Origin: Patescibacteria group bacterium
GTDB lineage: Bacteria > Patescibacteriota > Microgenomatia > Daviesbacterales > UBA10151
DNA: 64,000 bases
Assembly: GCA_038064895.1 (NCBI GenBank)
Contig: JBBTSA010000002.1
Span: forward strand, 8,942 to 72,941
Direction of reading: 5' to 3'
The notes beneath the pieces were generated by a model. That model was given only the letters and a program-made list of their open reading frames with translations, made no database searches and was not told where the DNA came from. The translations under genes and the position numbers were made by a program. Of the stretch, positions 5,727-62,236 are shown in pieces (position 1 is the first letter of the stretch; every line of letters starts with the position of its first letter).

Positions 5727-6084
5727 TTAATGCCTTTTTTACTTCATTTTTTGCTCTAAGAACCTTTCCTGCTAAAGTATTTAATTGAGCTTTAAGAGTG
5801 GTTTGTGAGTCAGTCTTTTTAGACCTTTGAAATGCTATTGCTTCAGCTGCATATGTTATCCAATAATCAGCAGCCTCAATTTGGCTGTCCACTCCTCCAA
5901 AAGCAACCCTTGTTTCTGTTATCCCCTTTCTTTCCCTTAACTCCTCCATTATTGCTGCAAGTCTTGCAGCATCCTCCTCAAACCTGTTACAAACCTTTTG
6001 GTTTACCTCATCCAAAGAAGGGGCAGCAAAAGCTGTAAATGGTAAAAACAAAAATATAATCCCCACCAAAACCCGCTTTTTCAT
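5719..6084 (-). CDS. Secreted hypothetical protein
   Basis: 121 aa. Signal peptide MKKRVLVGIIFLFLPFTAFAAPS. Confidence 0.5.
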   Translation of the reverse strand: MKKRVLVGIIFLFLPFTAFAAPSLDEVNQKVCNRFEEDAARLAAIMEELRERKGITETRVAFGGVDSQIEAADYWITYAAEAIAFQRSKKTDSQTTLKAQLNTLAGKVLRAKNEVKKALNE

Positions 6085-6114
6085 ATTTTTCTATCATACA
6101 CTATCTATCAGTAC

Positions 6115-6642
6115 TTGAAGAGTAACACAGGATCTGATATGCTAACGTTCCTTTTGGCTATTGAAATCTTACAAAAAGAAATGCGACAGCAGTTTCCATA
6201 TTGGGCCTGGTATGGAGAACCCCGCAGTGAGGATGCATCTACTTACCTTGAGAGGGCATGGGAATATGCTGAAGACGGAAATACCGGTAACATGGACGCT
6301 ATGGTTGCTATGGCACTAAGAACAAGTAATGCACCCTATCTGAATGCGGAGGAAATTAAGACAATGAGAGTTCACGGATACGGTATTTTTATACATAATA
6401 CATTAGGAATGCTTTTTGAGCTTGAGGATACATATGATGAAAGGTGTAATGACAAAGTGAATATTGTAGTAATGCTCCTTATAGATCCTAAGTCAGGCGG
6501 AACTACAGTAACACCGGAGGAGCGTGCTGAAACTATGGTAAATACTTCTAAACAATTTTCATTAGATCATCTTACTTTACTTAACCATCTTTATCCGCAA
6601 GTTGAAACAGCGGAACATAAATTAGACGAGCTGTTAAGCTAA
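6115..6642 (+). CDS. Hypothetical protein
   Basis: 175-aa ORF with no recognisable motif. Confidence 0.4.
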   Translation: MKSNTGSDMLTFLLAIEILQKEMRQQFPYWAWYGEPRSEDASTYLERAWEYAEDGNTGNMDAMVAMALRTSNAPYLNAEEIKTMRVHGYGIFIHNTLGMLFELEDTYDERCNDKVNIVVMLLIDPKSGGTTVTPEERAETMVNTSKQFSLDHLTLLNHLYPQVETAEHKLDELLS

Positions 6643-6645
6643 CAG

Positions 6646-6680
6646 CGGATGGCCAAAATGGCCCAAATTGGCCAAAACGG
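6646..6680. repeat. ~35-bp GGATGGCCAAAATGG...AAATTGGCCAA repeat (copy 2) at a convergent gene junction
   Basis: gcggatggccaaaatggcccaaattggccaaaacgg, matching copy 1 at 5441-5476. Again located between convergent genes. Confidence 0.5.
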
Positions 6681-21942: not shown

Positions 21943-22263
21943 ATGGATATTGTAAAAGCACCTAATCCAGCTTTAAAGGTTCAAACCAAATTGGTTAAAA
22001 AGATCACACCGGGTTTGATTCAAACTCTCAATAATATGATTAAGCTTACCAAAACTTTTAAGGATCCTGAGGGAGTAGGTTTGGCAGCTACTCAGGTGGG
22101 TTTGGATCAATGCTTCTTCGTAGCCAGGCTGCATGATTCAAAACATTCTCCTCCATCAGAACCTGGACAACGTCAAAAAAGATGGAAAAATTACAAAAAA
22201 GATTTTATATCTATTATAAATCCACAAATTTTATCTTTTTCCAAGAAAACCAAAATTACCTAA
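21943..22263 (+). pseudogene. Truncated 5' duplicate of peptide deformylase gene (first ~100 codons only)
   Basis: Translation MDIVKAPNPALKVQTKLVKK...GVGLAATQVGLDQCFFVARLHDSK is ~75% identical to residues 1-100 of def at 23183. Lacks the EGCLS and HEXXH motifs and ends after SFSKKTKIT. Confidence 0.7.
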
Positions 22264-22274
22264 GGGAGATTAAA

Positions 22275-23090
22275 CTAGATACCGCAAACAAGAACTCTAC
22301 CACTGGCATCAAAAAAAGAATCATCTCCATACCCACTAGCTTCAGAATACAAGCTATCGCCAGAATAAAAGTATGGTTGTTCTTGTTCTTTCCCCATTTC
22401 CAAGAGGAGAGCACAACCATTAGATTGATGCAGACCGCTTGTCGCATCACTACCAATTAAGAAAAAATGGTGAAATTCACTGGTCTTAAGATCTGGTCTT
22501 GTAATTGACAAGCCCAAGCCATCCCAATGATTTCCTAATCGCAGATGATCTCCTAAGTATCCACCCCAAATCAATTTTCTTAAGGCTAGGCAATTGACAT
22601 ACCTAGATAAATACCTCCCTTCGAGCAAATCTGTCACATACTCAGGTTCATGATGTTCACCGCGAGCCTGCAATTGTAGTGTTAAAAGACGTTCTTTATT
22701 ATCCCTAATTTCAGTATTGTATTTATCACCTACATGTAACCAGGTACCATATGATTGTTCTGGAAGATTGATACCCCTAGGATCCTGCAATTCTTCTATA
22801 TCTATAGTGGCAAAGGGATAAAGCGGAGGTCGATTAATCTTAAAACCTACAGCCTCAGCTAGTTGCCAAACAGTAACTTGTTCAAATTTTGGAACAAGAA
22901 TAGGTGTATCAACTCCAAGTTCATCAAACTCAGGTTTTCTAGTTGGGAAACCAGCCGGTAAGACTTTAAAACAATCATCCTTATTCATCCCTAAGACTCT
23001 GGTGACACCTTCAAATATCAATTCCCTTTGTATATCAAATTCTTCATTAAGAGGAATATTAGGGTATCTATTTTCTGCATCAATAACCAT
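22275..23090 (-). CDS. Hypothetical protein (271 aa), GC-richer than flanks, inserted between def fragment and intact def
   Basis: Long ORF with His/Glu-rich segments (GEHHEPEY, FHHFFLIGSD) and no family recognised. Composition visibly differs from neighbours. Confidence 0.5.
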   Translation of the reverse strand: MVIDAENRYPNIPLNEEFDIQRELIFEGVTRVLGMNKDDCFKVLPAGFPTRKPEFDELGVDTPILVPKFEQVTVWQLAEAVGFKINRPPLYPFATIDIEELQDPRGINLPEQSYGTWLHVGDKYNTEIRDNKERLLTLQLQARGEHHEPEYVTDLLEGRYLSRYVNCLALRKLIWGGYLGDHLRLGNHWDGLGLSITRPDLKTSEFHHFFLIGSDATSGLHQSNGCALLLEMGKEQEQPYFYSGDSLYSEASGYGDDSFFDASGRVLVCGI

Positions 23091-23182: not shown

Positions 23183-23764
23183 ATGTTACAAGTAATCCAT
23201 GCACCTGATCCAAGACTTAAAATTCAAACAAAGTTTGTAAAGAAAATAAATGGCGGTCTTTTAGCTACCTTAAAGGACATGATCAAACTTACTAAAACCT
23301 TTAAAGATCCGGAGGGAGTTGGTTTGGCAGCAACACAGGTTGGGCTTGATGAACGCTTTTTTGTAGCCAGATTACATGATTCTAAACAAATCCCTCCATC
23401 AAATCCAACCCAGCGAAGGGAAAGGTGGAAAAACTATAAAAAAGACTTTGTTGCAATTATCAATCCTAAAATTTTGTCATATTCTAAGCGTATCAAGCCT
23501 TATTTTGAGGGATGTTTATCCATTCCGACAATATGGGGTCAGGTTAAACGTCATACATCCGTAAAAGTATCTTATCAGGATGAAAAGGGTAATAATATTA
23601 AAAAAACCTTAAAAGGTATTCCTGCTTGGATATTTCAACATGAAGTTGATCATCTGGATGGGATACTGTTCACAGAAAGAGTCTTGCAGCAAAAAGGGGA
23701 GTTTTATAAATTCAAAGGCAAAGATAAAACAGGAACGGATGTATTTGAAGAAATTACATTATGA
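23183..23764 (+). CDS. def: Peptide deformylase
   Basis: 193 aa. GVGLAATQVG, EGCLSIP and QHEVDHLDG motifs. Confidence 0.9.
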   Translation: MLQVIHAPDPRLKIQTKFVKKINGGLLATLKDMIKLTKTFKDPEGVGLAATQVGLDERFFVARLHDSKQIPPSNPTQRRERWKNYKKDFVAIINPKILSYSKRIKPYFEGCLSIPTIWGQVKRHTSVKVSYQDEKGNNIKKTLKGIPAWIFQHEVDHLDGILFTERVLQQKGEFYKFKGKDKTGTDVFEEITL

Positions 23765-24687
23765 AAACACAACATCCACAAATTATTCATCCCGGTCAGA
23801 CTGTTTTCTTAAGAGAAGACTTAGATGTCAAAAAGTATCTGGTGAAAATACCTAGGCAGAATATAGAGATTGTATTTTTTGGATCAGATAGCTGGTCTAT
23901 CCATGTTCTTAAAACATTAGAAGATAATTTTGATGTTAAAGCTGTAGTTACTGCACCAGATTCTGCTGTAGCTAACCATTTTAAAGGCCCTGTACTCACT
24001 CCAGACACACTTGATGAGGCTTTTCTTACTACCAACTACCAACTACTAACTACTAACTTATTTATAGTAGCATCATATGGGAAAATCATACCAAAAGCCA
24101 TCTTAAATATTCCAAAATACGGTGCCCTAAATGTCCATCCATCTCTTTTACCCAAATATAGAGGTCCATCCCCCGTGCCTGCAACTATTTTAAATGGAGA
24201 CAAAGTTACAGGGGTAACTATTATTAAAATGGATGAGAAAATGGACCATGGACCTATTGTTGCAGTAAAGAAGATTAGATTAACAGGACGGGAAATTTTC
24301 CCGGATTTGATCAATAAATTGTTTCAACTTGGAGGAGAACTTCTAGTTAAAATTATCCCAGATTATATTACGGGAAAAATAAAACCTCTTGGACAAAATC
24401 AAGCAATGGCTGTATTTTGTCCAAGACTTAGCAGAAAAAGTGGCTATTTTGATATTGAAAAACCTCCATCCCCTGAAATGTTGGACAGGATGATTCGGGC
24501 CTACTATCCTTGGCCGGGAGTTTGGACCCGCTTTCGCCCTTCGGGTTCCAGTGGGCAAGCCCGCATTGTAAAATTCTTACCTGGAGGAATGCTACAAATG
24601 GAAGGCAAAAAGCCAATATCTTTTAAAGACTTCCTAAACGGCTACCCGGATTTTCTTTTAAAAAGTATTACTCTTGACAAAAAGTAA
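23761..24687 (+). CDS. fmt: Methionyl-tRNA formyltransferase
   Basis: 308 aa. Formyltransferase N-domain (NVHPSLLPKYRGPSPV) plus C-terminal domain. Overlaps def stop (ATGA). Confidence 0.9.
   Translation: MKTQHPQIIHPGQTVFLREDLDVKKYLVKIPRQNIEIVFFGSDSWSIHVLKTLEDNFDVKAVVTAPDSAVANHFKGPVLTPDTLDEAFLTTNYQLLTTNLFIVASYGKIIPKAILNIPKYGALNVHPSLLPKYRGPSPVPATILNGDKVTGVTIIKMDEKMDHGPIVAVKKIRLTGREIFPDLINKLFQLGGELLVKIIPDYITGKIKPLGQNQAMAVFCPRLSRKSGYFDIEKPPSPEMLDRMIRAYYPWPGVWTRFRPSGSSGQARIVKFLPGGMLQMEGKKPISFKDFLNGYPDFLLKSITLDKK
24625..24655 (+). repeat. 31-bp direct repeat AAAGACTTCCTAAACGGCTACCCGGATTTTC (copy 1, inside fmt 3' end)
   Basis: Perfect 31-mer repeated at 25344-25374. The two copies bracket the AbrB/PIN cassette. 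Confidence 0.85.
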
Positions 24688-24702
24688 TACTTATGGTATC
24701 TT
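24664..24702 (+). promoter_or_regulatory. Promoter-like TTGACA-17-TATCTT embedded in a 9-bp inverted repeat AGTATTACT/AGTAATACT upstream of the AbrB-type antitoxin
   Basis: ttgaca at 24674-79 and tatctt at 24697-702. The perfect inverted repeat flanking the -35 box suggests an autoregulatory operator. Confidence 0.4.
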
Positions 24703-24711
24703 GGTATTACT

Positions 24712-24972
24712 ATGTATAATGTATACACTTCCACTTTAACTTCTAAAGGTCAGGCTACAATTCCAGCTCCTGTTAGACGTAGGCTTGGCTTTAGACCAGG
24801 GCAAAAAATTATCTTTGCCGAAAAAGGTGGTAACATCTACATAAGCTCAGCTGTGGATTTATCAGAACTTAGGGGCTCTTTAAAACCTAAAGTTAAAACT
24901 AAATATAGCGATAAAAAGGCTGATGAAACTATTGGTAGAATGTTTGCTGCTGAATATGCCAAAACTCGTTGA
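24712..24972 (+). CDS. AbrB/SpoVT/MazE-type antitoxin
   Basis: 86 aa. TSKGQATIPAPVRRRLGFRPGQKI is the swapped-hairpin AbrB-type signature. Overlaps the downstream PIN gene. Confidence 0.6.
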   Translation: MYNVYTSTLTSKGQATIPAPVRRRLGFRPGQKIIFAEKGGNIYISSAVDLSELRGSLKPKVKTKYSDKKADETIGRMFAAEYAKTR

Positions 24973-25345
24973 CACGAATTTAATAGTCCGTTTTCTACTT
25001 AATGATAATCCGCAACAAGCCTTAGCTTCCGAAAAAGTTTTTAAACAGTCTTCCGATTTGGTTATTACTGATATTGCTGTCGCAGAAACAGTTTGGACTC
25101 TTCAATCCTTCTACGGCTTCTCAAGACAAGAAATCGTTGAAAAAATTTTTAAATTTCTCCAGTCTAAAAACTTCATTTGTAATCAAGAACTCCTCTTTAA
25201 CAGTCTTTTCTTATACCTAAACCATAATATTTCTTTTGTAGATGCTTATTTTGCAGCTTACGCGGAAATTGAAAAATTAGAAGGTATTTATTCTTTTGAT
25301 GAGGGGTTGGATAAAATTAAAACTATAAAAAGATTCAAACCCTAA
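24956..25345 (+). CDS. PIN-domain toxin (VapC-like)
   Basis: Starts MPKLVDTNLIVRFLLND (PIN N-terminal Asp motif). The track ORF 24923 is an upstream extension. Overlaps the antitoxin gene by 17 nt. Confidence 0.65.
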   Translation: MPKLVDTNLIVRFLLNDNPQQALASEKVFKQSSDLVITDIAVAETVWTLQSFYGFSRQEIVEKIFKFLQSKNFICNQELLFNSLFLYLNHNISFVDAYFAAYAEIEKLEGIYSFDEGLDKIKTIKRFKP

Positions 25346-26601
25346 AGACTTCCTAAACGGCTACCCGGATTTTCCAATACAACACATCGCCTAGAAGCTC
25401 TTGCTCTTTCTATCTCCCCAGCAGCAATTAAACGCTGTCTAGACTTTTTAACCTTATCTTCTGTCGCATCAAGCAAATCTGCAATTTGTACATTAGAAAG
25501 TTTTTCACCTGGGTTCATTAACGCAGCTACTTTTGTATCACGCTCATTAATCACCTCAGGCAGAGGTTGTCTCCTTTCCACTTTCTTTTTAGGTAGTAAA
25601 CGTCTACTGATAGAATTTTTAACAGAAGATTCTAAGACGTCAAGCAAATCTGCAATTTGAGGTACGGAATATGTACCTGATCTTCTCAAACTTTCTACTT
25701 CCACATCAAGTACAAGGTTGGCGGTACTAACTGGTCTGCCTGCTGTTCTCCTTTCTACTCTCCCCTCAGCAATTAGGTGCTGCAGAGAATATCTGACAGA
25801 CCCTAAATTCCTACTGACTTTTACTGCAATCTGCGGGTTAGAATAACCTTCTCTCCTTAAATCTATTATATTCCTATCATTTGGTATGATTCCAAAATAA
25901 TGCTCAAGTTCTGTTGCTTCAGATGTATCAAAATAGTAATAATGCCCCAGATTTCTTCTCCTGTGGTGCACATTAAATCCGTAGTCACGTAAATGCTGAA
26001 AAAGCTCTGCCAGAGATTTTGGGGATTTTCTCCCCAAATCATGAAGTACTAAACGAAGTGGCTTAAACGGAGGACTCCAAAGTTTTGGCCAGGACGGCTC
26101 TCTATCAGTCTCCTGGACTGGAATTTCGGGCAATTCAGGAATGGGGAACCCTGCTGCCATTAAAGCTCTGCGTCTTGGCGACATTAAATATGGCTTATGC
26201 CCAAATTTGATTGCTACTTCCTTTGAAGTGGCTCCTGCTAAAAAATCACGCACTATCAGAATAACCGAATCCATTCTCCATCCATGTTCAGGAAAAATTT
26301 TTCTCACAACAGCTACTAAAGGTGCCCTCTCAACTTGCCTTACTCTCAAACCAACTGATTGTCTAATATTTCCTGTTGCTCTAGCAATTTCACTTAAGCT
26401 ATACCCATTAGCATACAAAAAACTCTCTGTCTCTCTTGTAGTAACGCAGGCTGTTCTTAAACGCATTAGCTTCTCATGCAATGGCATCCAACCACTAATA
26501 GTAGTATTAATACCCAAGTGGGCACCTAGCTTTGCATAAGGAGACTCGCCTATTAGGTCAAGTCTAAATGAGTTAGCGTCTACTTGTTCTGCTTGAACCA
26601 T
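25342..26601 (-). CDS. Protein with four tandem sigma-70 region-4/LuxR-like HTH repeats, GC-richer
   Basis: 419 aa. Repeated motifs YSLSEIARATGNIRQSVGLR, YSNPQIAVKVSRNLGSVRYSL, YSVPQIADLLDVLESSVKNSI, LSNVQIADLLDATEDKVKKSR. The 3' end lies inside the 31-bp repeat copy 2. Confidence 0.5.
   Translation of the reverse strand: MVQAEQVDANSFRLDLIGESPYAKLGAHLGINTTISGWMPLHEKLMRLRTACVTTRETESFLYANGYSLSEIARATGNIRQSVGLRVRQVERAPLVAVVRKIFPEHGWRMDSVILIVRDFLAGATSKEVAIKFGHKPYLMSPRRRALMAAGFPIPELPEIPVQETDREPSWPKLWSPPFKPLRLVLHDLGRKSPKSLAELFQHLRDYGFNVHHRRRNLGHYYYFDTSEATELEHYFGIIPNDRNIIDLRREGYSNPQIAVKVSRNLGSVRYSLQHLIAEGRVERRTAGRPVSTANLVLDVEVESLRRSGTYSVPQIADLLDVLESSVKNSISRRLLPKKKVERRQPLPEVINERDTKVAALMNPGEKLSNVQIADLLDATEDKVKKSRQRLIAAGEIERARASRRCVVLENPGSRLGSL
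25344..25374 (+). repeat. 31-bp direct repeat AAAGACTTCCTAAACGGCTACCCGGATTTTC (copy 2)
   Basis: Identical to 24625-24655. Encodes the C-terminus (ENPGSRLGSL) of the minus-strand HTH-repeat gene. Confidence 0.85.
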
Positions 26602-26605
26602 AGTC

Positions 26606-26833
26606 TTAAGCTGATACAGCAGCCTGGCTTGAAACTGAAAAAGGAACTTTTACCATCCTTAAACATTTAGTACAGTATTTTTCTCCTTTATACATATGAA
26701 GGTTGGGTTTTTGGAATCTTTTGTGAATTGGGGCCCTAAGAGCCCAGACACCTCCTGCTCCTGAAGAACCTTTTTTATGCCTTGAAAAAGATATTTTATT
26801 TTTACCTTTGCCACACCTAAAACATACTGTCAT
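26606..26833 (-). CDS. rpmB: 50S ribosomal protein L28
   Basis: 75-aa translation MTVCFRCGKGKNKISFSRHKK...HKRFQKPNLH fits the L28 pattern C..TGK..GN.SH...KR.F.PNL. The longer 188-aa track ORF overlaps the M50 gene and is rejected. Confidence 0.55.
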   Translation of the reverse strand: MTVCFRCGKGKNKISFSRHKKGSSGAGGVWALRAPIHKRFQKPNLHMYKGEKYCTKCLRMVKVPFSVSSQAAVSA

Positions 26834-26852: not shown

Positions 26853-27491
26853 ATGAACCCGGAGTTTCTAGCCCTATCCATAGTCATTTTGTTATTCTCT
26901 GTTATTGTCCATGAGGTTATGCATGGGTATGTTGCCAAAAAATTTGGTGACCATACAGCAGAAAAAGCTGGCAGGTTAACCCTAAATCCAATACCCCATA
27001 TTGATCTTTTTGGAACAATTCTACTTCCGGGGCTTTTAATTTTTACCGGCTCCCCAATTCTTTTTGGATGGGCAAAACCGGTTCCTGTTAATCCTTTGAA
27101 CTTTACAAGTTTAAGAAAAGGAGAGCTTATGGTTTCTGCAGCAGGAATACTCTCCAACTTTGGTTTAGCCATAGCTGCAGCTTTAATTTATCATATCCTA
27201 AATGCCTTACCACAAACTTTTCCATTTTTACTGGGGGCACTTTTAAGATTCACAGTTACCATAAATTTGGTTTTGGGAGTATTTAATTTATTTCCTATTC
27301 CTCCTCTGGATGGATCAAAAGTGCTTTTATCTCAACTTCCTTATCATTTGGCAAAATCCTATCAAAGACTTGAGCCATATGGCATCTTGATACTTCTAAT
27401 TTTTCTTATGGTTCCATTTGGCCAAAGTTCACTCCTACATACAGTTTTGGGCTTTTTTGTAAGACTCTTATCCAGCTTTCTTGGATTTTAA
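26853..27491 (+). CDS. Site-2 protease family (M50) zinc metalloprotease
   Basis: 212 aa polytopic. HEVMHGYVAKKFGD (HExxH) and NLFPIPPLDGSKV (LDG motif). Confidence 0.8.
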   Translation: MNPEFLALSIVILLFSVIVHEVMHGYVAKKFGDHTAEKAGRLTLNPIPHIDLFGTILLPGLLIFTGSPILFGWAKPVPVNPLNFTSLRKGELMVSAAGILSNFGLAIAAALIYHILNALPQTFPFLLGALLRFTVTINLVLGVFNLFPIPPLDGSKVLLSQLPYHLAKSYQRLEPYGILILLIFLMVPFGQSSLLHTVLGFFVRLLSSFLGF

Positions 27492-32893: not shown

Positions 32894-32922
32894 TTGACAG
32901 AATTACCGAAATTCTGTAAAAT
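32894..32922 (+). promoter_or_regulatory. Sigma-70-like promoter TTGACA-17-TAAAAT for the AbrB/PIN pair
   Basis: ttgaca 32894-99, 17-nt spacer, taaaat 32917-22, about 10 nt before the ATG at 32933. Confidence 0.5.
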
Positions 32923-32932
32923 AGAAAATAAT

Positions 32933-33187
32933 ATGCAAACTACTTTTGAAGAAATTATTAAAATCCAACCAAGAGGAGTTTTTACCATACCTAAAAAGCT
33001 GCGGATAAATTTAGGGATCTCTGATAATAGTCTGGTTAGACTTAAGGAGGAAAGAGGCAGGCTGCTTATAGAACCTGTTAGGACCTTACCATACCCTGTA
33101 CGAAGTTATACCAAACAGGATATAGATGAGTTTATAGAATTTGACCAAAAACTTACTAAAACTTTGAAAGCAAAAGGAATATTGTAA
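32933..33187 (+). CDS. AbrB/SpoVT-type antitoxin
   Basis: MQTTFEEIIKIQPRGVFTIPKKLRINLGI is the AbrB-type swapped-hairpin signature. The upstream track start at 32894 lies inside the promoter. Confidence 0.6.
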   Translation: MQTTFEEIIKIQPRGVFTIPKKLRINLGISDNSLVRLKEERGRLLIEPVRTLPYPVRSYTKQDIDEFIEFDQKLTKTLKAKGIL

Positions 33188-33622
33188 GTGCCAAAGGATC
33201 CTCCCCTAATACTATTTAATGCCTCAGTGATTTTGGCAGGGATAAAATCTCCTCTAGGTGGTTCTGCTAAGCTGTTATCTTGGAGCAAGCAGGGAAAAGT
33301 AATTGGTTTAGTAAGTGAGATTATTGTTGATGAAGCGCTAAGGAATGCAACTAGGATTCATGTAAAACCTCAACATATCAATAGGCATTTAAAAAGTTTG
33401 AAAGTATGTTACTCTCCTAAAGCTCAAACAGTGGCTAAATTTGAAAAAATTGTAAAAGATTTGGGAGATGCTCATGTTTTAGCATCAGCAGAGGAAGAAA
33501 AAGCCCAATTTTTGGTAACTTTGGATAAAAAGCATCTTTTGATATTGCAAGGTGAAATTAAAAAGTTTAAAATTGTTTCTCCGGGCCAGTTAATTGAAGT
33601 CTTATCAAGTATCCAAAACTAG
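33188..33622 (+). CDS. PIN-domain toxin
   Basis: 144 aa, GTG start directly after the antitoxin stop. C-terminal DAHVLASAEEEKAQFLVTLDKKH is PIN-like. Confidence 0.55.
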   Translation: MPKDPPLILFNASVILAGIKSPLGGSAKLLSWSKQGKVIGLVSEIIVDEALRNATRIHVKPQHINRHLKSLKVCYSPKAQTVAKFEKIVKDLGDAHVLASAEEEKAQFLVTLDKKHLLILQGEIKKFKIVSPGQLIEVLSSIQN

Positions 33623-43674: not shown

Positions 43675-46017
43675 ATGAAAAAACTGCTTTTCTTATTTCT
43701 ACTTATGGTATTCCCCTTTTTGATGAGTCCGTCTTTCGCATATGGGCAAAGGCAAGAAGTTGACTGTACTATTGCGCAGTCAGCAGTAGGTACTGTTTCG
43801 GACTTATACCAGTGTTCAGGCGGTATTGCCTGCTATAACGACTTCGATTTTATTGTAGAAGGCAACAAATGTTTTAAAGAACCACGGCAAGGAGACTTTG
43901 ATGGTGGACGTTACCATTGTGATACCCAAGCTGATGCTCCTTTTATTGATCCAAGGAATGGTTCTAGAACTACAGTAGGTGCAATTTGCACAGGTGCAGG
44001 GCTTAATTTATCAGCTTCAAGTAAAGCTCTTGAGAATTGCCACATTGAGTACGATAAAGAAAAACAGGAAGGCACGTTTTTTGCAAAGGCCAGTTCTTTT
44101 AGTGGTCCGGTAATCTTTGAACGATTCGAAACACTACCAAACGGACAGGAGGTTGAAATTGCAAAAGATCTTGCAAAATTGAGTTTTACAAATAATGAAT
44201 TGCGTCGCTCCTTCAACCCAGCCCCTGATATCCTCAGAACAAGAGTGGTACTCTATCCTGTGGAAACCAATACTGCTCCGGATGCTGAGCTTTGTACAGC
44301 AAAACATGAGTTTGTTGTGGATAATAGTACTCAAGCAGAAGGTCCTTCTGAACCCGAACCAGCTGCTCCAAGACCTGTTGTTGCCCTACCTTCTGTTATT
44401 GAAATGGTAATTGATAGGTTGGATACTCAAGGAGCTGATAAAGTTGAGGAAAGGGTGGTAGAAGGATTTGAATATAGAGGTGGTGAAGAAGTAAATATCA
44501 CTGCATTTTTGTATGGCAAAGCAGATGAAGCAAAAATTTATGCAGACCCCGCAAAATTAGCTGCAGGCAGATGTATACCAACAGATACTTCTTTAATCTG
44601 GAAGCTTGATGGAAAAGAAATTACAAATGACCAGGTAGTTAGTAATGAATTTGGAGGCAAATCAGTCCTAAAACAAGCCTGTCAACACTTTATTCTAAAA
44701 ATGCCTACAGAATCGGGAGCTCACAACCTATCTGTTGCTCTACCCAATGATGAAAATTATTTGAAAGCTGCAGAACACATACACAGATTCCGAATTAAAG
44801 CTCCTGAACAAACCAGGTCAACAGTGGAGGTTACAGGCTCACCTAATGTATCATCCAGTAGTGTACGGGGTGTAGCCACTTCTTCTGCCAAGCTTAAGAA
44901 AAACAGCATTAAACGTTTGTCTCTTTCAAAAATACTTGAAAAAGATGTAGCAGGAGTTTCTGTTGAGAATTTAGGGGAAAACAGATACTCTGTTCAATCC
45001 ACACCAGTTGGAGATAATTTAATTTATGTTAATCCCTGTACTACTTCTTTAGAATCATCTGATAAGCCTGACTTTACCTTTTTAACACTAAGAAAAGTTG
45101 ATGAGGATAGATCTTCTGAAATTTTGCCCCAGAGCGGAAAAGTTGATAATTGTGAGATACAACCAATAGATTTAGGAGATATTGATGATATGAAGTATCT
45201 GGCAATTGATGTTCACTTTGATCCAGAAGGCTCTTACGAATTTGCTCCATCCAAATCAGAAGATGTAATTATTTATACAGAAGATGAAGAACTTAATTTA
45301 GCAAATGAACCGCTCTTTGTTAAGTTAAAAACAGATCCGGAAATTATTGGTGCTGATGATCGTGAAGTTGAAATCATTGCAATCAGTAACAGACCAATTG
45401 ATGACCCTACTTTTTATGTTAATAGTGGGGGTAGATCTGCAGAATATATTGATTCTGATTGCACAGAAGGAGGAAATTGCGAATACCATATAACTGTTAT
45501 TACTGAATCTAATACAAACTATAATATTGAATTTGCATCTAAATCAATTAGATTCTCAACCGGAGAACTAGAAATTCCAGATGAATCTCAGCCAGAAGAA
45601 CCCCAATCTGGGGAACGTAACGTAACTAATGTTTCAGTATTTATCAATGGTGATGAAATACCCATTTCTGATCCTAACATTACTGTTCAAAGCCCTGGAA
45701 CAGTTCTTATTAGGGTTACCTTTAGTGATGGAGATACGGAATCCATACTTTTGAATCTACAAAGAGGTTCAGGGGAACCAGGGCCTACAGAAGAACCTGG
45801 ACCCACAGAAGAACCCCAGCCTACGGATGAACCACAACCTACAGAGGAACCTTCCCCTACACCATTTCCAACAACTCAATGCCCTGCAGATTGTAATGCT
45901 TATGGAGATGAATGCTGGAGAGGACCAGTAGGGAAAGTTGATGATGAGTGTCCAGAAGATTATACTGATCTTGATGATCCTGGTACAGGATGCTGGGGAA
46001 GATGTGAAGTATTATGA
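43675..46017 (+). CDS. Large secreted protein (780 aa) with Pro/Glu/Thr linker and Cys-rich C-terminal module
   Basis: Signal peptide MKKLLFLFLLMVFPFLMSPSFAYGQ. EPGPTEEPGPTEEPQPTDEPQPTEEPSPTP linker. C-terminal CPADCNAYGDECWRGPVGKVDDECPEDYTDLDDPGTGCWGRCEVL. Confidence 0.55.
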   Translation: MKKLLFLFLLMVFPFLMSPSFAYGQRQEVDCTIAQSAVGTVSDLYQCSGGIACYNDFDFIVEGNKCFKEPRQGDFDGGRYHCDTQADAPFIDPRNGSRTTVGAICTGAGLNLSASSKALENCHIEYDKEKQEGTFFAKASSFSGPVIFERFETLPNGQEVEIAKDLAKLSFTNNELRRSFNPAPDILRTRVVLYPVETNTAPDAELCTAKHEFVVDNSTQAEGPSEPEPAAPRPVVALPSVIEMVIDRLDTQGADKVEERVVEGFEYRGGEEVNITAFLYGKADEAKIYADPAKLAAGRCIPTDTSLIWKLDGKEITNDQVVSNEFGGKSVLKQACQHFILKMPTESGAHNLSVALPNDENYLKAAEHIHRFRIKAPEQTRSTVEVTGSPNVSSSSVRGVATSSAKLKKNSIKRLSLSKILEKDVAGVSVENLGENRYSVQSTPVGDNLIYVNPCTTSLESSDKPDFTFLTLRKVDEDRSSEILPQSGKVDNCEIQPIDLGDIDDMKYLAIDVHFDPEGSYEFAPSKSEDVIIYTEDEELNLANEPLFVKLKTDPEIIGADDREVEIIAISNRPIDDPTFYVNSGGRSAEYIDSDCTEGGNCEYHITVITESNTNYNIEFASKSIRFSTGELEIPDESQPEEPQSGERNVTNVSVFINGDEIPISDPNITVQSPGTVLIRVTFSDGDTESILLNLQRGSGEPGPTEEPGPTEEPQPTDEPQPTEEPSPTPFPTTQCPADCNAYGDECWRGPVGKVDDECPEDYTDLDDPGTGCWGRCEVL

Positions 46018-46256
46018 ATATAGCAGGTTATCAAATTAGCAAAATACAAGCTTTTACAATAGGATTTTTACTAGTAGGCATTATTATCGGAGTCTTTTTA
46101 GTACAAAGACAACAAACTTTAAAAAGTAAAGCCAGTGAAGAGCTCTACAATAAAATTAATGTCCGGGATGCAGAGTGTTTTGGTGAAGGTAGCTCTTATA
46201 CCTGCCGGACTCAATCTGATCAAGTTGAAATAGATATAAGCAATCTACTCCCTTAA
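46014..46256 (+). CDS. Small single-pass membrane protein with conserved LVQ(R/K)xQ juxtamembrane motif and Cys pair (paralogue of 50651-50923)
   Basis: 80 aa. ISKIQAFTIGFLLVGIIIGVFLVQRQQTLKSKA is ~60% identical to ISKKQAIITLILLLGIVFGVILVQKPQIFKGRA of the other copy. ATGA overlap with the preceding giant gene. Confidence 0.55.
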   Translation: MNIAGYQISKIQAFTIGFLLVGIIIGVFLVQRQQTLKSKASEELYNKINVRDAECFGEGSSYTCRTQSDQVEIDISNLLP

Positions 46257-46273
46257 TCCAATACCACCCAGCC

Positions 46274-46302
46274 TCAGCCACAAAAAATACAACAACAAAT
46301 TA
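46274..46302 (+). repeat. att-like copy 3 (CAGCCACAAAAAATACAACAACAAATTAG)
   Basis: In-frame SATKNTTTN* again. Preceded by ACCACCCAGCCTC, a 13-mer that recurs at 51786-51798. Confidence 0.65.
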
Positions 46303-46327
46303 GCCAAGTTTAAGTCCTGCCAATTTT

Positions 46328-46960
46328 TTAGATCTTAAATTTAACCTTTGCTAGCTTTATAGTCTGCTCTTGAAAGAATTTTTTAACCTCATCCCAGGAA
46401 ACAGAAATTAACATTTTGGGAGGTTCCTGAGAATCTGCATCTGCAAAGTAATCCAGACTCCTCATAATATGGACAATATTGTTGGAAAGTTTACCGTATT
46501 TTTGTTCATAAAACTTTAAAATTTGTTCCAGGGAAAATTTTTTAACCAAAAAATAAAGGTCAATAAAATCTCTTTTTGTGCCTCGGCTTGAGATAGCATC
46601 AATTTTCATAGCAGCAATATCTTCCAGAGATGCCAGATTAATCTTAGAAAAGACAGATGTTTTTTTAATTAGTGGATATCTGTAATAAAAATAGCTGAAC
46701 TTAACTTTTGGGAAACTACCCAAAATAGTCCATTTTGCTGTTTCATCTAATTTAAATCCAGGTAACTTTTCGAGCTGTTCTAAAACATCTTCTGTATTGA
46801 ATTCAATGTTCGTAAAAAAATCAAGGTCTAAAGATATGCGGTGTCCAATCTGAAGCGCGCAAGATGTGCCTCCGGCAAGGTATGTATCTTTAAGAATCCC
46901 TGACTCTCCTAATAAGGCCAAAGCTCCTGCCGCATTTTTAGATAAGGTTTTTGTAAACAT
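46328..46960 (-). CDS. Nucleotidyltransferase AbiEii/AbiGii-family toxin (type IV TA / abortive infection)
   Basis: 210 aa. YLAGGTSCALQIGHRISLDLDFF matches the AbiEii GGTAL...R.S.DLDF signature. Confidence 0.7.
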   Translation of the reverse strand: MFTKTLSKNAAGALALLGESGILKDTYLAGGTSCALQIGHRISLDLDFFTNIEFNTEDVLEQLEKLPGFKLDETAKWTILGSFPKVKFSYFYYRYPLIKKTSVFSKINLASLEDIAAMKIDAISSRGTKRDFIDLYFLVKKFSLEQILKFYEQKYGKLSNNIVHIMRSLDYFADADSQEPPKMLISVSWDEVKKFFQEQTIKLAKVKFKI

Positions 46961-47211
46961 ATCACCTTTCTTTTATTAATATCTAAAAGATCCGCCCAGA
47001 AATTGGCAGTTCTGGCAGAAAACCCCCTCCTTTTTGTAACTACCTCTCTAATTAAGTCTCTGCTGTAGGTTTTAAACATCCATCTGATTGCTTTATCATG
47101 CCCCTTATCCAAAAGCCTGTGTATAATGTAAGGCCCACTTTGCTCCTTATCAAGCTCATTAAAATCTACATCCCAAAAGTATTGTTTTAAAAAGGTAGGA
47201 AGCTTTTTCAT
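46909..47211 (-). CDS. Putative partner (antitoxin?) of the AbiEii-like gene
   Basis: 100-aa ORF overlapping the AbiEii gene start by 52 nt. No confident motif. Confidence 0.3.
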   Translation of the reverse strand: MKKLPTFLKQYFWDVDFNELDKEQSGPYIIHRLLDKGHDKAIRWMFKTYSRDLIREVVTKRRGFSARTANFWADLLDINKRKVICLQKPYLKMRQELWPY

Positions 47212-47372: not shown

Positions 47373-47597
47373 TCAATTAATCTCTTCTTCTGTTCTATCC
47401 GACCATATTCCTCTGGTTTCGTCAACTAATTTTTTGATCTTTTCCTTTTTATCTGCTTCATCGCTAATAGGTTGAAGTTTCACTTTTACTTCTCTATCTT
47501 TTTTTATATACACAGGTTCACCAGTAGAAACCACCATATCGACAAGGTTAAAGAAATTGTTTCTTACCTCAGTTGCTGTAATAATATTTTTAGCCAT
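47373..47597 (-). CDS. Phd/YefM-family antitoxin (apparently orphan)
   Basis: 74 aa. ITATEVRNNFFNLVDMVVSTGEPVYIKKDRE is Phd/YefM-like. Downstream lies only a 42-codon start-less remnant (EDLLDSFEFIQADKQISQKAGFLLRDIKVMAIEINRKKYTF). Confidence 0.6.
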   Translation of the reverse strand: MAKNIITATEVRNNFFNLVDMVVSTGEPVYIKKDREVKVKLQPISDEADKKEKIKKLVDETRGIWSDRTEEEIN

Positions 47598-50923: not shown

Positions 50924-50985
50924 CCGGTACAACCGAAGCCTCTAATATTTATGGAGATATAATTTTTACGTTCGCCATAGGCGAA

Positions 50986-51046
50986 GGCAAGGTTCTGACA
51001 ACTGAGCAGTAGAATCTCTAATACTGCGAAGGTGTCATGGTCCTTA
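50986..51046. other. Conserved ~60-nt element (copy B), homologous to 520-579. Overlaps the 3' end of a PIN gene.
   Basis: ggcaaggttctgacaactgagcagtagaatctctaatactgcgaaggtgtcatggtcctta. Preceded by the perfect hairpin ttcgccataggcgaa. Confidence 0.35.
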
Positions 51047-51398
51047 TATCCTTCATTGGAAAATCGGAAGTGTTGTTTGTGACAAGGGTCAAATGGTTAA
51101 GTTTTGCCTGGGCAGCAAGGAAATAGTCTAAAAGCTGTGTTCTTTTGGTTCTCAAAAACTTTTTTCTATATGCTGCTGCTAGTTTAGCAGTGTCAAGGTC
51201 TATAGGCAAAATTGGAAAGCTATCTATTAACTTTTGGAATTGTTTCTCTTCCTTTTCTGTGGCTTGAGACAAAAATTCGCCGACAACTACTACAGATAAA
51301 TAAAGCTCCTTCTCTGCTACTGCTTTTTTAAAAAAGCTTTGACTCGGTTCTTCTCCTATTAATGCTCTAATAATAACATTGGTATCTAAAAGATACAT
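51018..51398 (-). CDS. PIN-domain toxin (VapC)
   Basis: 126 aa. MYLLDTNVIIRAL N-terminus, ...TLVTNNTSDF C-terminal motif. 1-nt-adjacent to the upstream RHH gene. Confidence 0.7.
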   Translation of the reverse strand: MYLLDTNVIIRALIGEEPSQSFFKKAVAEKELYLSVVVVGEFLSQATEKEEKQFQKLIDSFPILPIDLDTAKLAAAYRKKFLRTKRTQLLDYFLAAQAKLNHLTLVTNNTSDFPMKDIRTMTPSQY

Positions 51399-51668
51399 CT
51401 AAAGAATTTTCCTGTCGCGCCTTATTTCCCTTTGCCACTTATTAATATCTACTCCTGCCCAGCCACTTTCCTTAGGGTCTATTGAGCCGCCAAGCTCATC
51501 GGCTAATTTTTTAAGCTCTTCTTTTTCTTTTCTCTCCTCCTCTAGTCTTTTTCTAGCAGCTTTTCTTAAATACTCAGCAAGGGATTCACCACTGGAAGCT
51601 CTTTGACGGTCTATTTCAGCTCTTAAATCTTTTGGTAAATAAATTTGAGTTCTTATAGCTTGATGCAT
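51399..51668 (-). CDS. RHH-type antitoxin (VapB-like)
   Basis: 89 aa. TQIYLPKDLRAEIDRQRASSGESLAEYLRKAARKRLEE (beta-strand plus two helices), charged C-terminal tail. Confidence 0.6.
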   Translation of the reverse strand: MHQAIRTQIYLPKDLRAEIDRQRASSGESLAEYLRKAARKRLEEERKEKEELKKLADELGGSIDPKESGWAGVDINKWQREIRRDRKIL

Positions 51669-54245: not shown

Positions 54246-54251
54246 GAATTG

Positions 54252-54359
54252 ACCTAATTGATCTAATTAACCTAATTTCTAAACAAATCCCAATGACTAA
54301 TTTTGGAAATTGGTGCTTAAGTCATTGTTTAGGTCAATTAGAAATTAGAAATTAGAAAT
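54252..54359 (+). repeat. ~110-bp AT-rich repeat element (copy 1), ends 22 nt before rplK start. Inverted partner at 62041-62157.
   Basis: ~85% identical to the reverse complement of 62041-62157. Contains the internal inverted repeat CAATGAC...GTCATTG and tandem AATTAGAAATT units. Confidence 0.75.
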
Positions 54360-54380
54360 TCAAGATTAAATGGAATAAAT

Positions 54381-61750: not shown

Positions 61751-61805
61751 ATTGAGACAGAATGGCTGATGAAGATCATAAATGATCTTCTCTGACCATA
61801 TAAAT

Positions 61806-62042
61806 ATGGCAGATAAATTATCACTTGAGAATCTCCCTGACCTTTTAACTGTTAGAGAAGTTGCTGAAGTTTTAAGGGTCTCCCCTTTAACCATCAAGAG
61901 ATGGGGTAAAAGAGGAAAACTCCCTGCAATAAGAATAAATTCCAGAGGAGATAGAAGATATAAGAAAGAAGCCGTGCTATGGTTACTAGGAATAACTCAG
62001 AAAAACACCGGAACTGAATCAAGTACACCAACCACCTATTAA
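61806..62042 (+). CDS. Excisionase-family / MerR-like HTH DNA-binding protein
   Basis: LLTVREVAEVLRVSPLTIKRWGKRGKLPAIRINSRGDRRYKKEAV matches the excisionase-family HTH pattern. Preferred start is MADKLS at 61806. Confidence 0.55.
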   Translation: MADKLSLENLPDLLTVREVAEVLRVSPLTIKRWGKRGKLPAIRINSRGDRRYKKEAVLWLLGITQKNTGTESSTPTTY

Positions 62043-62157
62043 ATTTCTAATTACTAATTTCTAATTGACCTAAATAATGACTTAATGTCTAATGTCCCAA
62101 TTTAGTCATTTGGTCATTGGGATTTGATTAGAAATTAGGTTAATTAGGTTAATTAGG
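62041..62157 (-). repeat. ~110-bp AT-rich repeat element (copy 2, inverted relative to 54252-54359)
   Basis: Reverse complement aligns at ~85% identity with copy 1, including the CAATGAC/GTCATTG hairpin and AATTAGAAATT units. Confidence 0.75.
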
Positions 62158-62236
62158 GCAATTTAGCACTTTACTACTCTATTCTGCTAATTACCGATGA
62201 ATATGTTGTCCTAAAGCCAAATCCGCCAGCAGCGGA

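Follow-up and report, generated by a model that had tools for sequence, protein, structure and literature searches.

Genes and features of the fmt locus

The stretch of Patescibacteria DNA analysed here (64 kb, hereafter the window) carries, at the 3' end of the methionyl-tRNA formyltransferase gene fmt, a toxin-antitoxin (TA) cassette lying between two exact copies of a 32-bp direct repeat that is itself fmt sequence. We describe this locus as a 3'-end displacement array at a housekeeping gene of a Candidate Phyla Radiation (CPR) bacterium, with TA cassettes as cargo. For comparison we used a set of 149 loci (L001-L149) from NCBI, ENA, JGI and Logan; searches with the fmt protein assign the window to Ca. 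Daviesbacteria/Microgenomates (Patescibacteria) from groundwater. The features of the locus in the window are these:

23183-23764: full def gene (Pfam/NCBIfam), directly upstream of fmt
23761-24687, plus strand: fmt, methionyl-tRNA formyltransferase, 308 aa (Pfam Formyl_trans_N, E=1.3e-30; TIGR00460, E=9e-55)
24624-24655: direct repeat copy 1, in the present fmt 3' region, encoding KDFLNGYPDF, 32 nt ahead of the fmt stop codon
24656-24711, plus strand: left end of the cassette, the fmt tail codons overlapping a putative TA promoter and a putative operator
24712-24972, plus strand: antitoxin with AbrB/MazE fold, 86 aa (PF04014, E=8.7e-8; TIGR01439, E=2.7e-9)
24956-25345, plus strand: PIN-domain toxin, 129 aa (PF01850, E=6e-11), its stop codon inside repeat copy 2
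25343-25374: direct repeat copy 2, relic of the displaced fmt 3' end, holding the PIN stop codon TAA (25343-25345)
25344-25394, plus strand: displaced former fmt tail, an open frame reading KDFLNGYPDFPIQHIA and then a stop; in translation its length and its PI... start fit the native fmt tails of relatives
25342-26601, minus strand: helix-turn-helix (HTH) repeat gene, 419 aa (Pfam Sigma70_r4_2 and HTH_23), its last 10 codons and stop coming from repeat copy 2
26606-26833, minus strand: gene for a small CxxC...CxxC protein, 75 aa, the usual convergent neighbour of fmt in the basal layout
26853-27491, plus strand: M50 peptidase gene (PF02163), in conserved synteny, the right-hand border of the variable region

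A direct repeat derived from the fmt 3' end

The repeat, TAAAGACTTCCTAAACGGCTACCCGGATTTTC, is identical in its two copies, which have a spacing of 719 bp. The sequence-only reading that first pointed to this locus gave it as a 31-mer at 24625-24655 and 25344-25374; a scan of the window confirms both positions with 0 mismatches and finds nothing further at up to three mismatches, where 100 dinucleotide shuffles set the chance expectation at 0 matches. Identity reaches one T further to the left, making the true repeat 32 bp long. Among the best 20 of the 51 repeat families of the window, this fmt-tail repeat is the only perfect one.

The residues FLNGYPDFP are kept in all related fmt genes and are followed by 4-10 variable residues up to the end of the protein, and the repeat is therefore native fmt sequence. 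The frame that continues from copy 2 reads PIQHIA and then a stop, a normal tail length for the fmt family. The last ten codons of the present fmt (LLKSITLDKK, then the stop) go instead with the cassette: such a tail (PLKSITLDKK) was matched only in L003 and L011, both of which have AbrB/PIN directly after fmt. When one repeat and the cassette (719 bp) are removed in silico, fmt ends in ...DFPIQHIA with a tail of normal length, and about 53 nt of this restored tail would lie over the HTH gene. On the minus strand copy 2 encodes ENPGSRLGSL and the stop of the HTH gene, the C-terminus that the earlier reading had assigned to it. Thanks to the duplication fmt, PIN and the HTH gene all have intact ends, the relic supplying the PIN stop as well as the HTH C-terminus and stop. 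The earlier statement that both flanking genes kept their ends is correct as a statement about selection.

The same reading placed a complete promoter, operator, antitoxin and toxin unit between the two copies, and the promoter, inverted-repeat and Pfam/NCBIfam evidence agrees with this, the operator being a predicted one. Judged by its sequence, one repeat together with the cassette (719 bp) forms a self-contained type II TA unit of AbrB and PIN with its own predicted promoter and operator. The antitoxin gene lies directly upstream of the PIN toxin gene and overlaps it by 17 nt, in one predicted operon; the PIN acidic residues D6, E44, D96 and D115 are invariant across 13 homologues. The best promoter match in the region is sigma-70-like: its TTGACA is at 24674-24679 and, past a spacer of 17 nt, its TG-TATCTT runs up to 24702. 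This promoter-like site sits within the last fmt codons. An inverted-repeat scan of 24600-24760 found operator-like arms at 24663-75/24680-92 and 24683-90/24704-11, and GTATTAC/GTAATAC half-sites flank the promoter. The putative promoter and operator inverted repeats recur across species, and a block, AGTATTACTCTTGACAAAAAGTAATAC, is kept beside the AbrB/PIN pairs of L003, L011, L082, L083, L084, L098, L146 and L149. In its domain pair, gene order, gene overlap, palindromic putative operator around the promoter and intact PIN acidic tetrad the cassette is like VapBC-type type II systems, and we note no difference from them; the TA pair itself, known here from sequence alone, is ordinary.

One trivial explanation is that two strain variants, one with fmt followed by the TA pair and one with fmt followed by the HTH gene, were joined during assembly through their common 32-mer. 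The DNA does come from a metagenome assembly, and the usual assembly k-mers are longer than the repeat, but the junction between the PIN end and the repeat needs real reads. Furthermore, locus L001, an independent ENA assembly from Hainich groundwater, has seven of the seven tested locus proteins at 100% identity, AbrB and PIN among them, these two again lying between fmt and the HTH gene; its two repeat copies are likewise 719 bp apart. The HTH protein is present on at least three contigs, and the same architecture occurs in many unrelated assemblies (NCBI, ENA, JGI, Logan). Because L001 carries identical proteins, order and repeat spacing, we regard an assembly artefact as scarcely credible.

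Relics of the fmt tail in related genomes

The basal layout of the locus is def, fmt, a variable region, the small CxxC gene on the opposite strand, and M50. In about one-third of the species-level loci fmt is directly convergent with the small gene, with gaps of -15 to +58 bp (in L129 the small gene overlaps the fmt tail), while elsewhere the variable region extends to as much as 3.7 kb. Additional copies of the fmt tail, which we call relics, were found downstream of fmt in at least 15 related species-level loci, always in the orientation of fmt; the relic-bearing loci are the window, L004, L007, L008, L011, L082 (four relics), L083, L084, L096, L098, L106, L108, L115, L128, L135, L146/L147 and L149. 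The chance background for such relics, taken from mononucleotide shuffles of all loci, was about 0 at 0-1 mismatch and 12 matches even at three mismatches. A metagenome scan with the conserved fmt 20-mer (24637-24656) returned 61 loci, of which about 13 were unrelated matches (for example amidases and a DDE transposase) that we discarded as chance, the remainder being Daviesbacteria fmt loci.

The relics accompany quite different cargo. Behind the PIN stop codon there is another copy of the fmt tail in L004 (which retains no more than a remnant of PIN), L011, L082, L083, L084, L098, L106, L135 and L149. Between the tail copies of L108, L128, L115 and L096 lies a RelB/DinJ-RelE/YafQ pair; in L007 there is a gene with a twin-arginine translocation (TAT) signal, for a secreted, enzyme-like protein; and L146/L147 hold a 4.9-kb PrkA/DUF444/SpoVR operon. 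The cargo of L082 comprises HicB-like, cNMP-binding (cyclic nucleotide) and orphan genes, with five tail copies in 7.7 kb. In these arrays (L082, L096, L146) the cassettes have their genes in either orientation and are separated by tail copies of the same orientation. The majority of relics lie between genes, with no gene extending over them (L082, L011, L007).

The right side of every relic continues into an fmt-like tail, and it is the left edge that varies. The left edge lies at about -22 in L135; at -13 in the window, L011, L098, L004, L083, L149, the RelE cassettes and L007; at -8 in L084 and L106; at 0 in L083 (first copy) and L146; and at +4 in L082, +9 in L006 and +12 in L146. At the -13 junction the last cassette gene takes its stop codon from the TAA in fmt's TTTAAAAGAY. 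Apparent microhomology at TAA/CCC can be made out at several junctions, including that of L006. The leftover fmt end of the relatives ranges from 8 nt to more than 40 nt, and the perfect repeats measure 32 bp in the window, 36 bp in L098, 23 bp in L149 and 20 bp in both L007 and L146. Finally, L083 is the closest TA relative of the window, and the DNA of the two is 83.5% identical over a segment that opens exactly with the first 20-mer and closes exactly with the second (24637-25375), with none shared outside, and because the identity is confined to this segment we take the mobile unit to be bounded by two tail copies.

These comparisons bear on the sequence-only reading, which called the locus a textbook insertion footprint made when a TA cassette landed in the overlap of two convergent genes and duplicated it. 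Insertion relative to a simpler state holds up, as many relatives have fmt directly convergent with its neighbour. A convergent overlap at the landing site also fits, given the overlap of the restored fmt tail with the HTH gene and an HTH homologue in L149 that ends in fmt-tail antisense, but the landing was not a one-off. What does not survive is the target-site duplication. A single transposition of a mobile TA cassette into the fmt/HTH overlap, with a duplication of 31-32 bp, would explain a perfect direct repeat exactly at the cassette borders and the plausible gene ends that remain when one copy and the cassette are removed. Target-site duplications of known transposases measure about 2-15 bp, and 32 bp is far above such lengths; reading of the cassette revealed no inverted ends and it has no transposase gene; the junctions return in relatives with TA proteins of only about 50% identity, and in at least 15 other loci with different cargo; and across loci the repeat length runs from 8 to 112 nt. 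We therefore consider a single transposition very improbable. The two findings named beforehand as telling against the footprint were each seen in part: the TA pair occurs without a second tail copy in L003/L126 and L147, which lack the relic, and the repeat occurs at many cassette junctions, but only downstream of fmt.

The same signature at other genes

Locus L081, from a distant Patescibacterium, has an fmt only 36% identical to that of the window and with a different tail, ...AGYGDIDQAVMN. Directly after this fmt, at 5832-6648, there is a 705-bp ParE-type TA cassette between 112-nt repeats of L081's own fmt end (95% identity), followed by a Fic/DOC gene. Two further examples lie in the window itself:

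40529-46305, plus strand: PBP1A gene end, with the 3' end at 40529-40576 and relics at 40903-40965 and 46270-46305 (repeat families D1 and D3)
21943-23090: mirror example on the def side, upstream of full def, with a truncated def' at 21943-22263 (plus strand) and then the orphan orf271 at 22275-23090 (minus strand)

The PBP1A gene ends in ...QAATKNTITN and a stop, and its relics, 387 bp and 5.7 kb downstream, keep the frame and the stop (...ATKNTTTN) at 85% and 83% identity. Enclosed by these copies are a 387-bp segment and a 5.3-kb block of three genes (PP2C/Ig-like of 893 aa, 780 aa and 80 aa), which opens with a TTGACA of its own just past the relic. The def' fragment, of 106 aa, is 71% identical to the N-terminus of full def and matches TIGR00079 in part (repeat families D2, D5 and D7); together with the orphan 271-aa gene it looks like a 5'-end counterpart of the fmt relic. 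When the 948 gene ends of all loci were scanned blind, six had a downstream relic match, against 0 in a reverse-complement control. Of these six, one is the repeat described here, approached from the side of the HTH gene, and the match in L015 was rejected as a relic, being a tandem paralogue. A further gene in L011 has the signature too. The different 112-nt repeat of L081 and the PBP1A and def relics of the window speak for a process that is independent of the fmt-tail sequence.

Homology-driven recombination or site-specific capture

Relative to the genes around them, the cassettes are of horizontal origin. The identity matrices of PIN and AbrB conflict with those of fmt, def and M50: the PIN protein of the window is 88% identical to that of L083 and 80% to that of L082, while fmt is only 63% identical to that of L082. 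Mosaicism extends into fmt itself, its N-terminal two-thirds being nearest to L003, L106 and L098 (about 75%) and its C-terminal third nearest to L002 and L007 (about 76%), against just 49-57% for L003, L106 and L098.

On balance we lean towards addition of the cassette at the fmt 3' end by homology-driven recombination, either homology-facilitated illegitimate recombination (HFIR) or a single crossover, rather than by transposition, with TA addiction retaining the cassette. The donor would be DNA from a related Daviesbacterium in which the fmt 3' end is followed by the TA pair. This DNA would pair with the resident fmt, either for HFIR or for single-crossover integration of a circularised fragment, and the other joint would form at the TAA microhomology just upstream of the conserved NGYPDFP-coding 20-mer. 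As a result fmt would gain the cassette-linked tail that overlaps the TA promoter, and the former fmt end would be displaced downstream as a relic of 32 bp plus tail. One illegitimate and one homologous joint are suggested by the relics, whose left edge varies and whose right side is always an fmt-like tail; the second joint, whether illegitimate or made through the highly conserved tail, would leave a variable length of the old fmt end displaced. The duplication is explained by selection, in that where the fmt of a streamlined genome abuts or overlaps its convergent neighbour, only events keeping both ends survive. In the relatives, repeated rounds may then have built arrays of cassettes with fmt-tail relics between them, and cassettes bounded by two tail copies may pass between genomes through recombination at those copies. 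TA cassettes probably predominate because they are self-expressing and because their loss by deletion between repeats would be toxic.

Several observations weigh against this explanation. First, the -13 junction, with TAA fused to AAGAY, is common to three unrelated cassettes (PIN, RelE and the TAT-signal gene), which looks more regular than random illegitimate joints would; we infer that this regularity reflects TAA microhomology together with selection for a clean stop codon. Second, several genomes have perfect repeat copies, and the relics keep a 16-nt core, GCTACCCNGATTTTCC, far better than expected of an old neutral relic, with no significant extra closeness to the fmt copy of their own genome (permutation p=0.07). 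Third, within the fmt 20-mer the rare codons AAC-GGC-TAC are almost fixed in the window and relatives L002-L025 (GGC in 14 of 17 against 17% genome usage, TAC in 12 of 17 against 27%) while the adjacent CCN varies freely, which suggests a constraint at the nucleotide level such as an att site would have. Fourth, fmt identity among the relatives is 60-75%, low for efficient RecA pairing outside the conserved tail. Fifth, when loci were clustered by fmt 3' DNA, structures were identical within every species and no polymorphism between occupied and empty sites was seen. An exact-protein look-up of fmt, in search of an empty site in the same species, likewise gave no match.

A different view of the relics is that the overlap of fmt and its convergent gene was duplicated once, long ago, the second copy being kept because both PIN and the convergent gene take their ends from it, and its similarity being maintained by gene conversion from fmt. 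The relic encodes the C-terminus of the HTH family in the same frame in the window and in L149, the CxxC gene of L129 does overlap the fmt tail, and the PIN-bearing loci have the junction of PIN stop and relic in common. There is also a concerted change in L147, where both fmt-tail copies read CCCAAA and L146 has CCCGGA. We nonetheless find a single old duplication quite improbable: most relics lie outside any gene, they flank unrelated cargo and occur several to a locus, even PIN-family loci vary in where the junction falls, the trees of PIN and fmt conflict, and relics are often nearer to the fmt of another genome than to that of their own. That gene conversion alone conserves the relics was rejected on the same permutation result.

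The regularities that count against recombination of the kind we prefer would be expected if the fmt tail (about 20-33 bp) were an att-like site served by a recombinase encoded elsewhere, of a Xer-exploiting or integron-like kind, with cassettes excised as circles carrying one copy and inserting at fmt or at any relic, and so building arrays. The -13 junction in three unrelated types of cargo, the perfect repeats in several genomes, the fixed rare codons beside a varying CCN and the homology of the window and L083 that starts and stops exactly at the two copies are all points in its favour. So are the direct repeats that match the fmt 3' end and restore fmt, the arrays with genes in either orientation split by same-orientation copies, and the resemblance of arrayed TA cassettes to chromosomal integrons. 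Excision of the cassette, site-specific or repeat-mediated, would be marked by two junctions:

Empty-site junction: fmt ...CAATATCTTT followed by ...GGCTACCCGGATTTTCCAATACAACACATCGCC
Circle junction: PIN end AAGATTCAAACCC, then TAAAGAC...GATTTTC, then TTTTAAAAAGTATTAC

The hallmarks of such elements were looked for in several ways. The cassette genes are AbrB and PIN only, with no transposase or integrase among them, and domain annotation found no integrase in the cassette of any relative. A crude test for the tyrosine-recombinase motif (the HxLRH pattern, applied to the open reading frames of the window) was negative. No terminal inverted repeats were seen on reading the cassette sequence (the tool scan covered its left end, 24600-24760), and reading of the 32-mer sequence showed no dyad symmetry or attC-like hairpin; the scan gave only TTTAAA-type inverted-repeat arms flanking the repeat, and a regional signal scan placed no terminator-like site in it. 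The 32-mer is not known to resemble dif, and a dif relationship was rejected. At the head of the array there is no intI, attI or Pc: the array begins at fmt, with def and fmt upstream in all loci. A phage or plasmid carrier was rejected because both the 20-mer and the PIN protein are absent from viral contigs, and an uptake-sequence or Chi-like motif because the window shows no excess of the repeat's sub-words.

Against site-specific capture, then, stand the absence of an integrase from the cassettes and of a tyrosine-recombinase motif from the window (a weak test), the site's want of a visible hairpin or of known dif likeness and the absence of the 20-mer from viral contigs. The relic left edges, from -22 to +12, are not constant as those of such a system would be; L081 has the same architecture with a different 112-nt repeat; and the PBP1A and def ends show the signature with unrelated sequences. 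We thus hold site-specific capture to be fairly unlikely. Its most developed form, an integron-like gene-capture platform of the Daviesbacteria in which the 3' end of an essential gene is the attachment site, the recombinase acts in trans and TA cassettes stabilise the array, we judge unlikely as well, although the rare-codon fixation, the perfect repeats and the -13 junction across unrelated cargo keep it alive.

Relation to known gene-acquisition systems

The displacement array at fmt is closest in form to the Rhs/CDI (contact-dependent inhibition) toxin arrays and the effector-immunity arrays of type VI secretion (T6SS), whose 3'-end displacement has been attributed to HFIR (PMC5361080). 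In both, a conserved upstream anchor remains, incoming DNA replaces the 3' end, orphaned 3' fragments are pushed downstream, and trees show a horizontal origin. Here, however, the anchor is the housekeeping gene fmt, the displaced pieces measure 8-112 nt, the cassettes are free-standing, mostly TA and with their own promoters, and the host is a streamlined CPR bacterium. C-terminal displacement in Rhs/CDI is reportedly the subject of Jackson 2009 and Koskiniemi 2014.

As for the recombination itself, the window encodes DprA, which mediates recombination in natural transformation. HFIR, summarised in PMC3240628 for naturally transformable bacteria, has one homologous end and one illegitimate microhomology end, with no element-encoded enzyme. 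The pairing of a homologous with an illegitimate end would be common to that process and the fmt locus, but the experimental cases concern only a few cultured species whereas here the process is deduced from junction patterns. The work on HFIR is said to go back to de Vries and Wackernagel 2002 and Prudhomme et al. 2002. We know of no report in which HFIR used one site repeatedly to build arrays.

Genomic islands of the SGI1 type (Salmonella genomic island 1) likewise insert in the 3' end of a gene, leave direct repeats of that end and keep the gene intact; SGI1 integrates site-specifically at trmE and restores it (PMC6531882). Such islands have an integrase and fixed junctions, whereas at fmt no integrase was found in the cassettes, the relic length varies and L081 uses a different repeat. 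Chromosomal integron arrays are similar in their mostly single-gene cassettes, their recurring site in one orientation and their TA cassettes with own promoters, which plausibly stabilise the array; they differ in that no attC hairpins were seen here on reading the repeat, no intI, attI or Pc is present, and the site is a fragment of a housekeeping gene. A final parallel is found in the tycheposons and tRNA-flanked cargo arrays of Prochlorococcus (bioRxiv 10.1101/2020.12.28.424599), where again a streamlined genome has hotspot islands with cargo split by partial copies of the target gene. The tycheposons use tRNA targets and encoded tyrosine recombinases, neither of which was seen at the fmt locus.

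The genomes of CPR/Patescibacteria are tiny and streamlined, and few mobile elements can be recognised in them, yet they vary in gene content. The fmt locus is a footprint of how such genomes may add genes, by recombining cassettes at conserved gene ends and leaving a relic each time. Relics are easily searched and could serve to locate acquisition hotspots, to put events in temporal order, and to weigh transformation-driven recombination against dedicated integrases. TA modules would be the main hitchhikers of these hotspots, in parallel to their role in integron arrays.

Neighbouring genes and other observations in the window

The HTH-repeat protein at first seemed an orphan newcomer, a word-index search matching only the protein itself, but an exhaustive search gave a remote family matching residues 1-236 (the N-domain, followed by the HTH-repeat region) and a member in L149, and the orphan assignment was dropped. 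The L149 homologue, P0049 (on the reverse strand), comes after AbrB/PIN and a relic, in the same position as in the window, and ends in ...KENPGSH and a stop, the antisense of the fmt 20-mer. A hidden Markov model of the N-domain found no additional copy in the 149 loci.

The small CxxC gene stands beside M50 in at least 35 distinct related loci (tblastn; 44 rows including duplicates). Its protein had no match in Pfam, NCBIfam or PDB, and these sequence searches did not confirm its identification as ribosomal protein L28, which we rejected. Most genes of the variable region have no Pfam domain either, and in the variable minus-strand genes no domain was found. Between fmt and the CxxC gene of L005, L006, L008, L082, L084 and L125 lies a family of fast-evolving minus-strand proteins, about 620 aa long and also with no Pfam domain; it is the sole variable minus-strand family common to several loci, and its L006 member has, by eye, a RelE-like C-terminus.

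Elsewhere the window contains four more TA loci and an orphan Phd/YefM antitoxin (765-1444, 32894-33622, 46328-47211, 47373-47597 and 51018-51668), a high TA density for a genome of the 1-Mb class; the additional types are two ribbon-helix-helix (RHH)/PIN pairs, MazE/PIN_3 and AbiEii/DUF6922. A 46-nt direct repeat (76% identity) lies 3' of both RHH/PIN pairs, at 518-563 and 50984-51029, with a possible hairpin GCAGTA...TACTGC; it matched no Rfam family. Finally, inverted repeats of 75-80 nt (81-85% complementary) at 54247-54371 and 62038-62163, 7.7 kb apart, bracket the gene block from L11 and L1 to L10 and L7/L12 (named by reading their translations) together with a MerR/excisionase-like HTH gene at 61782-62042.

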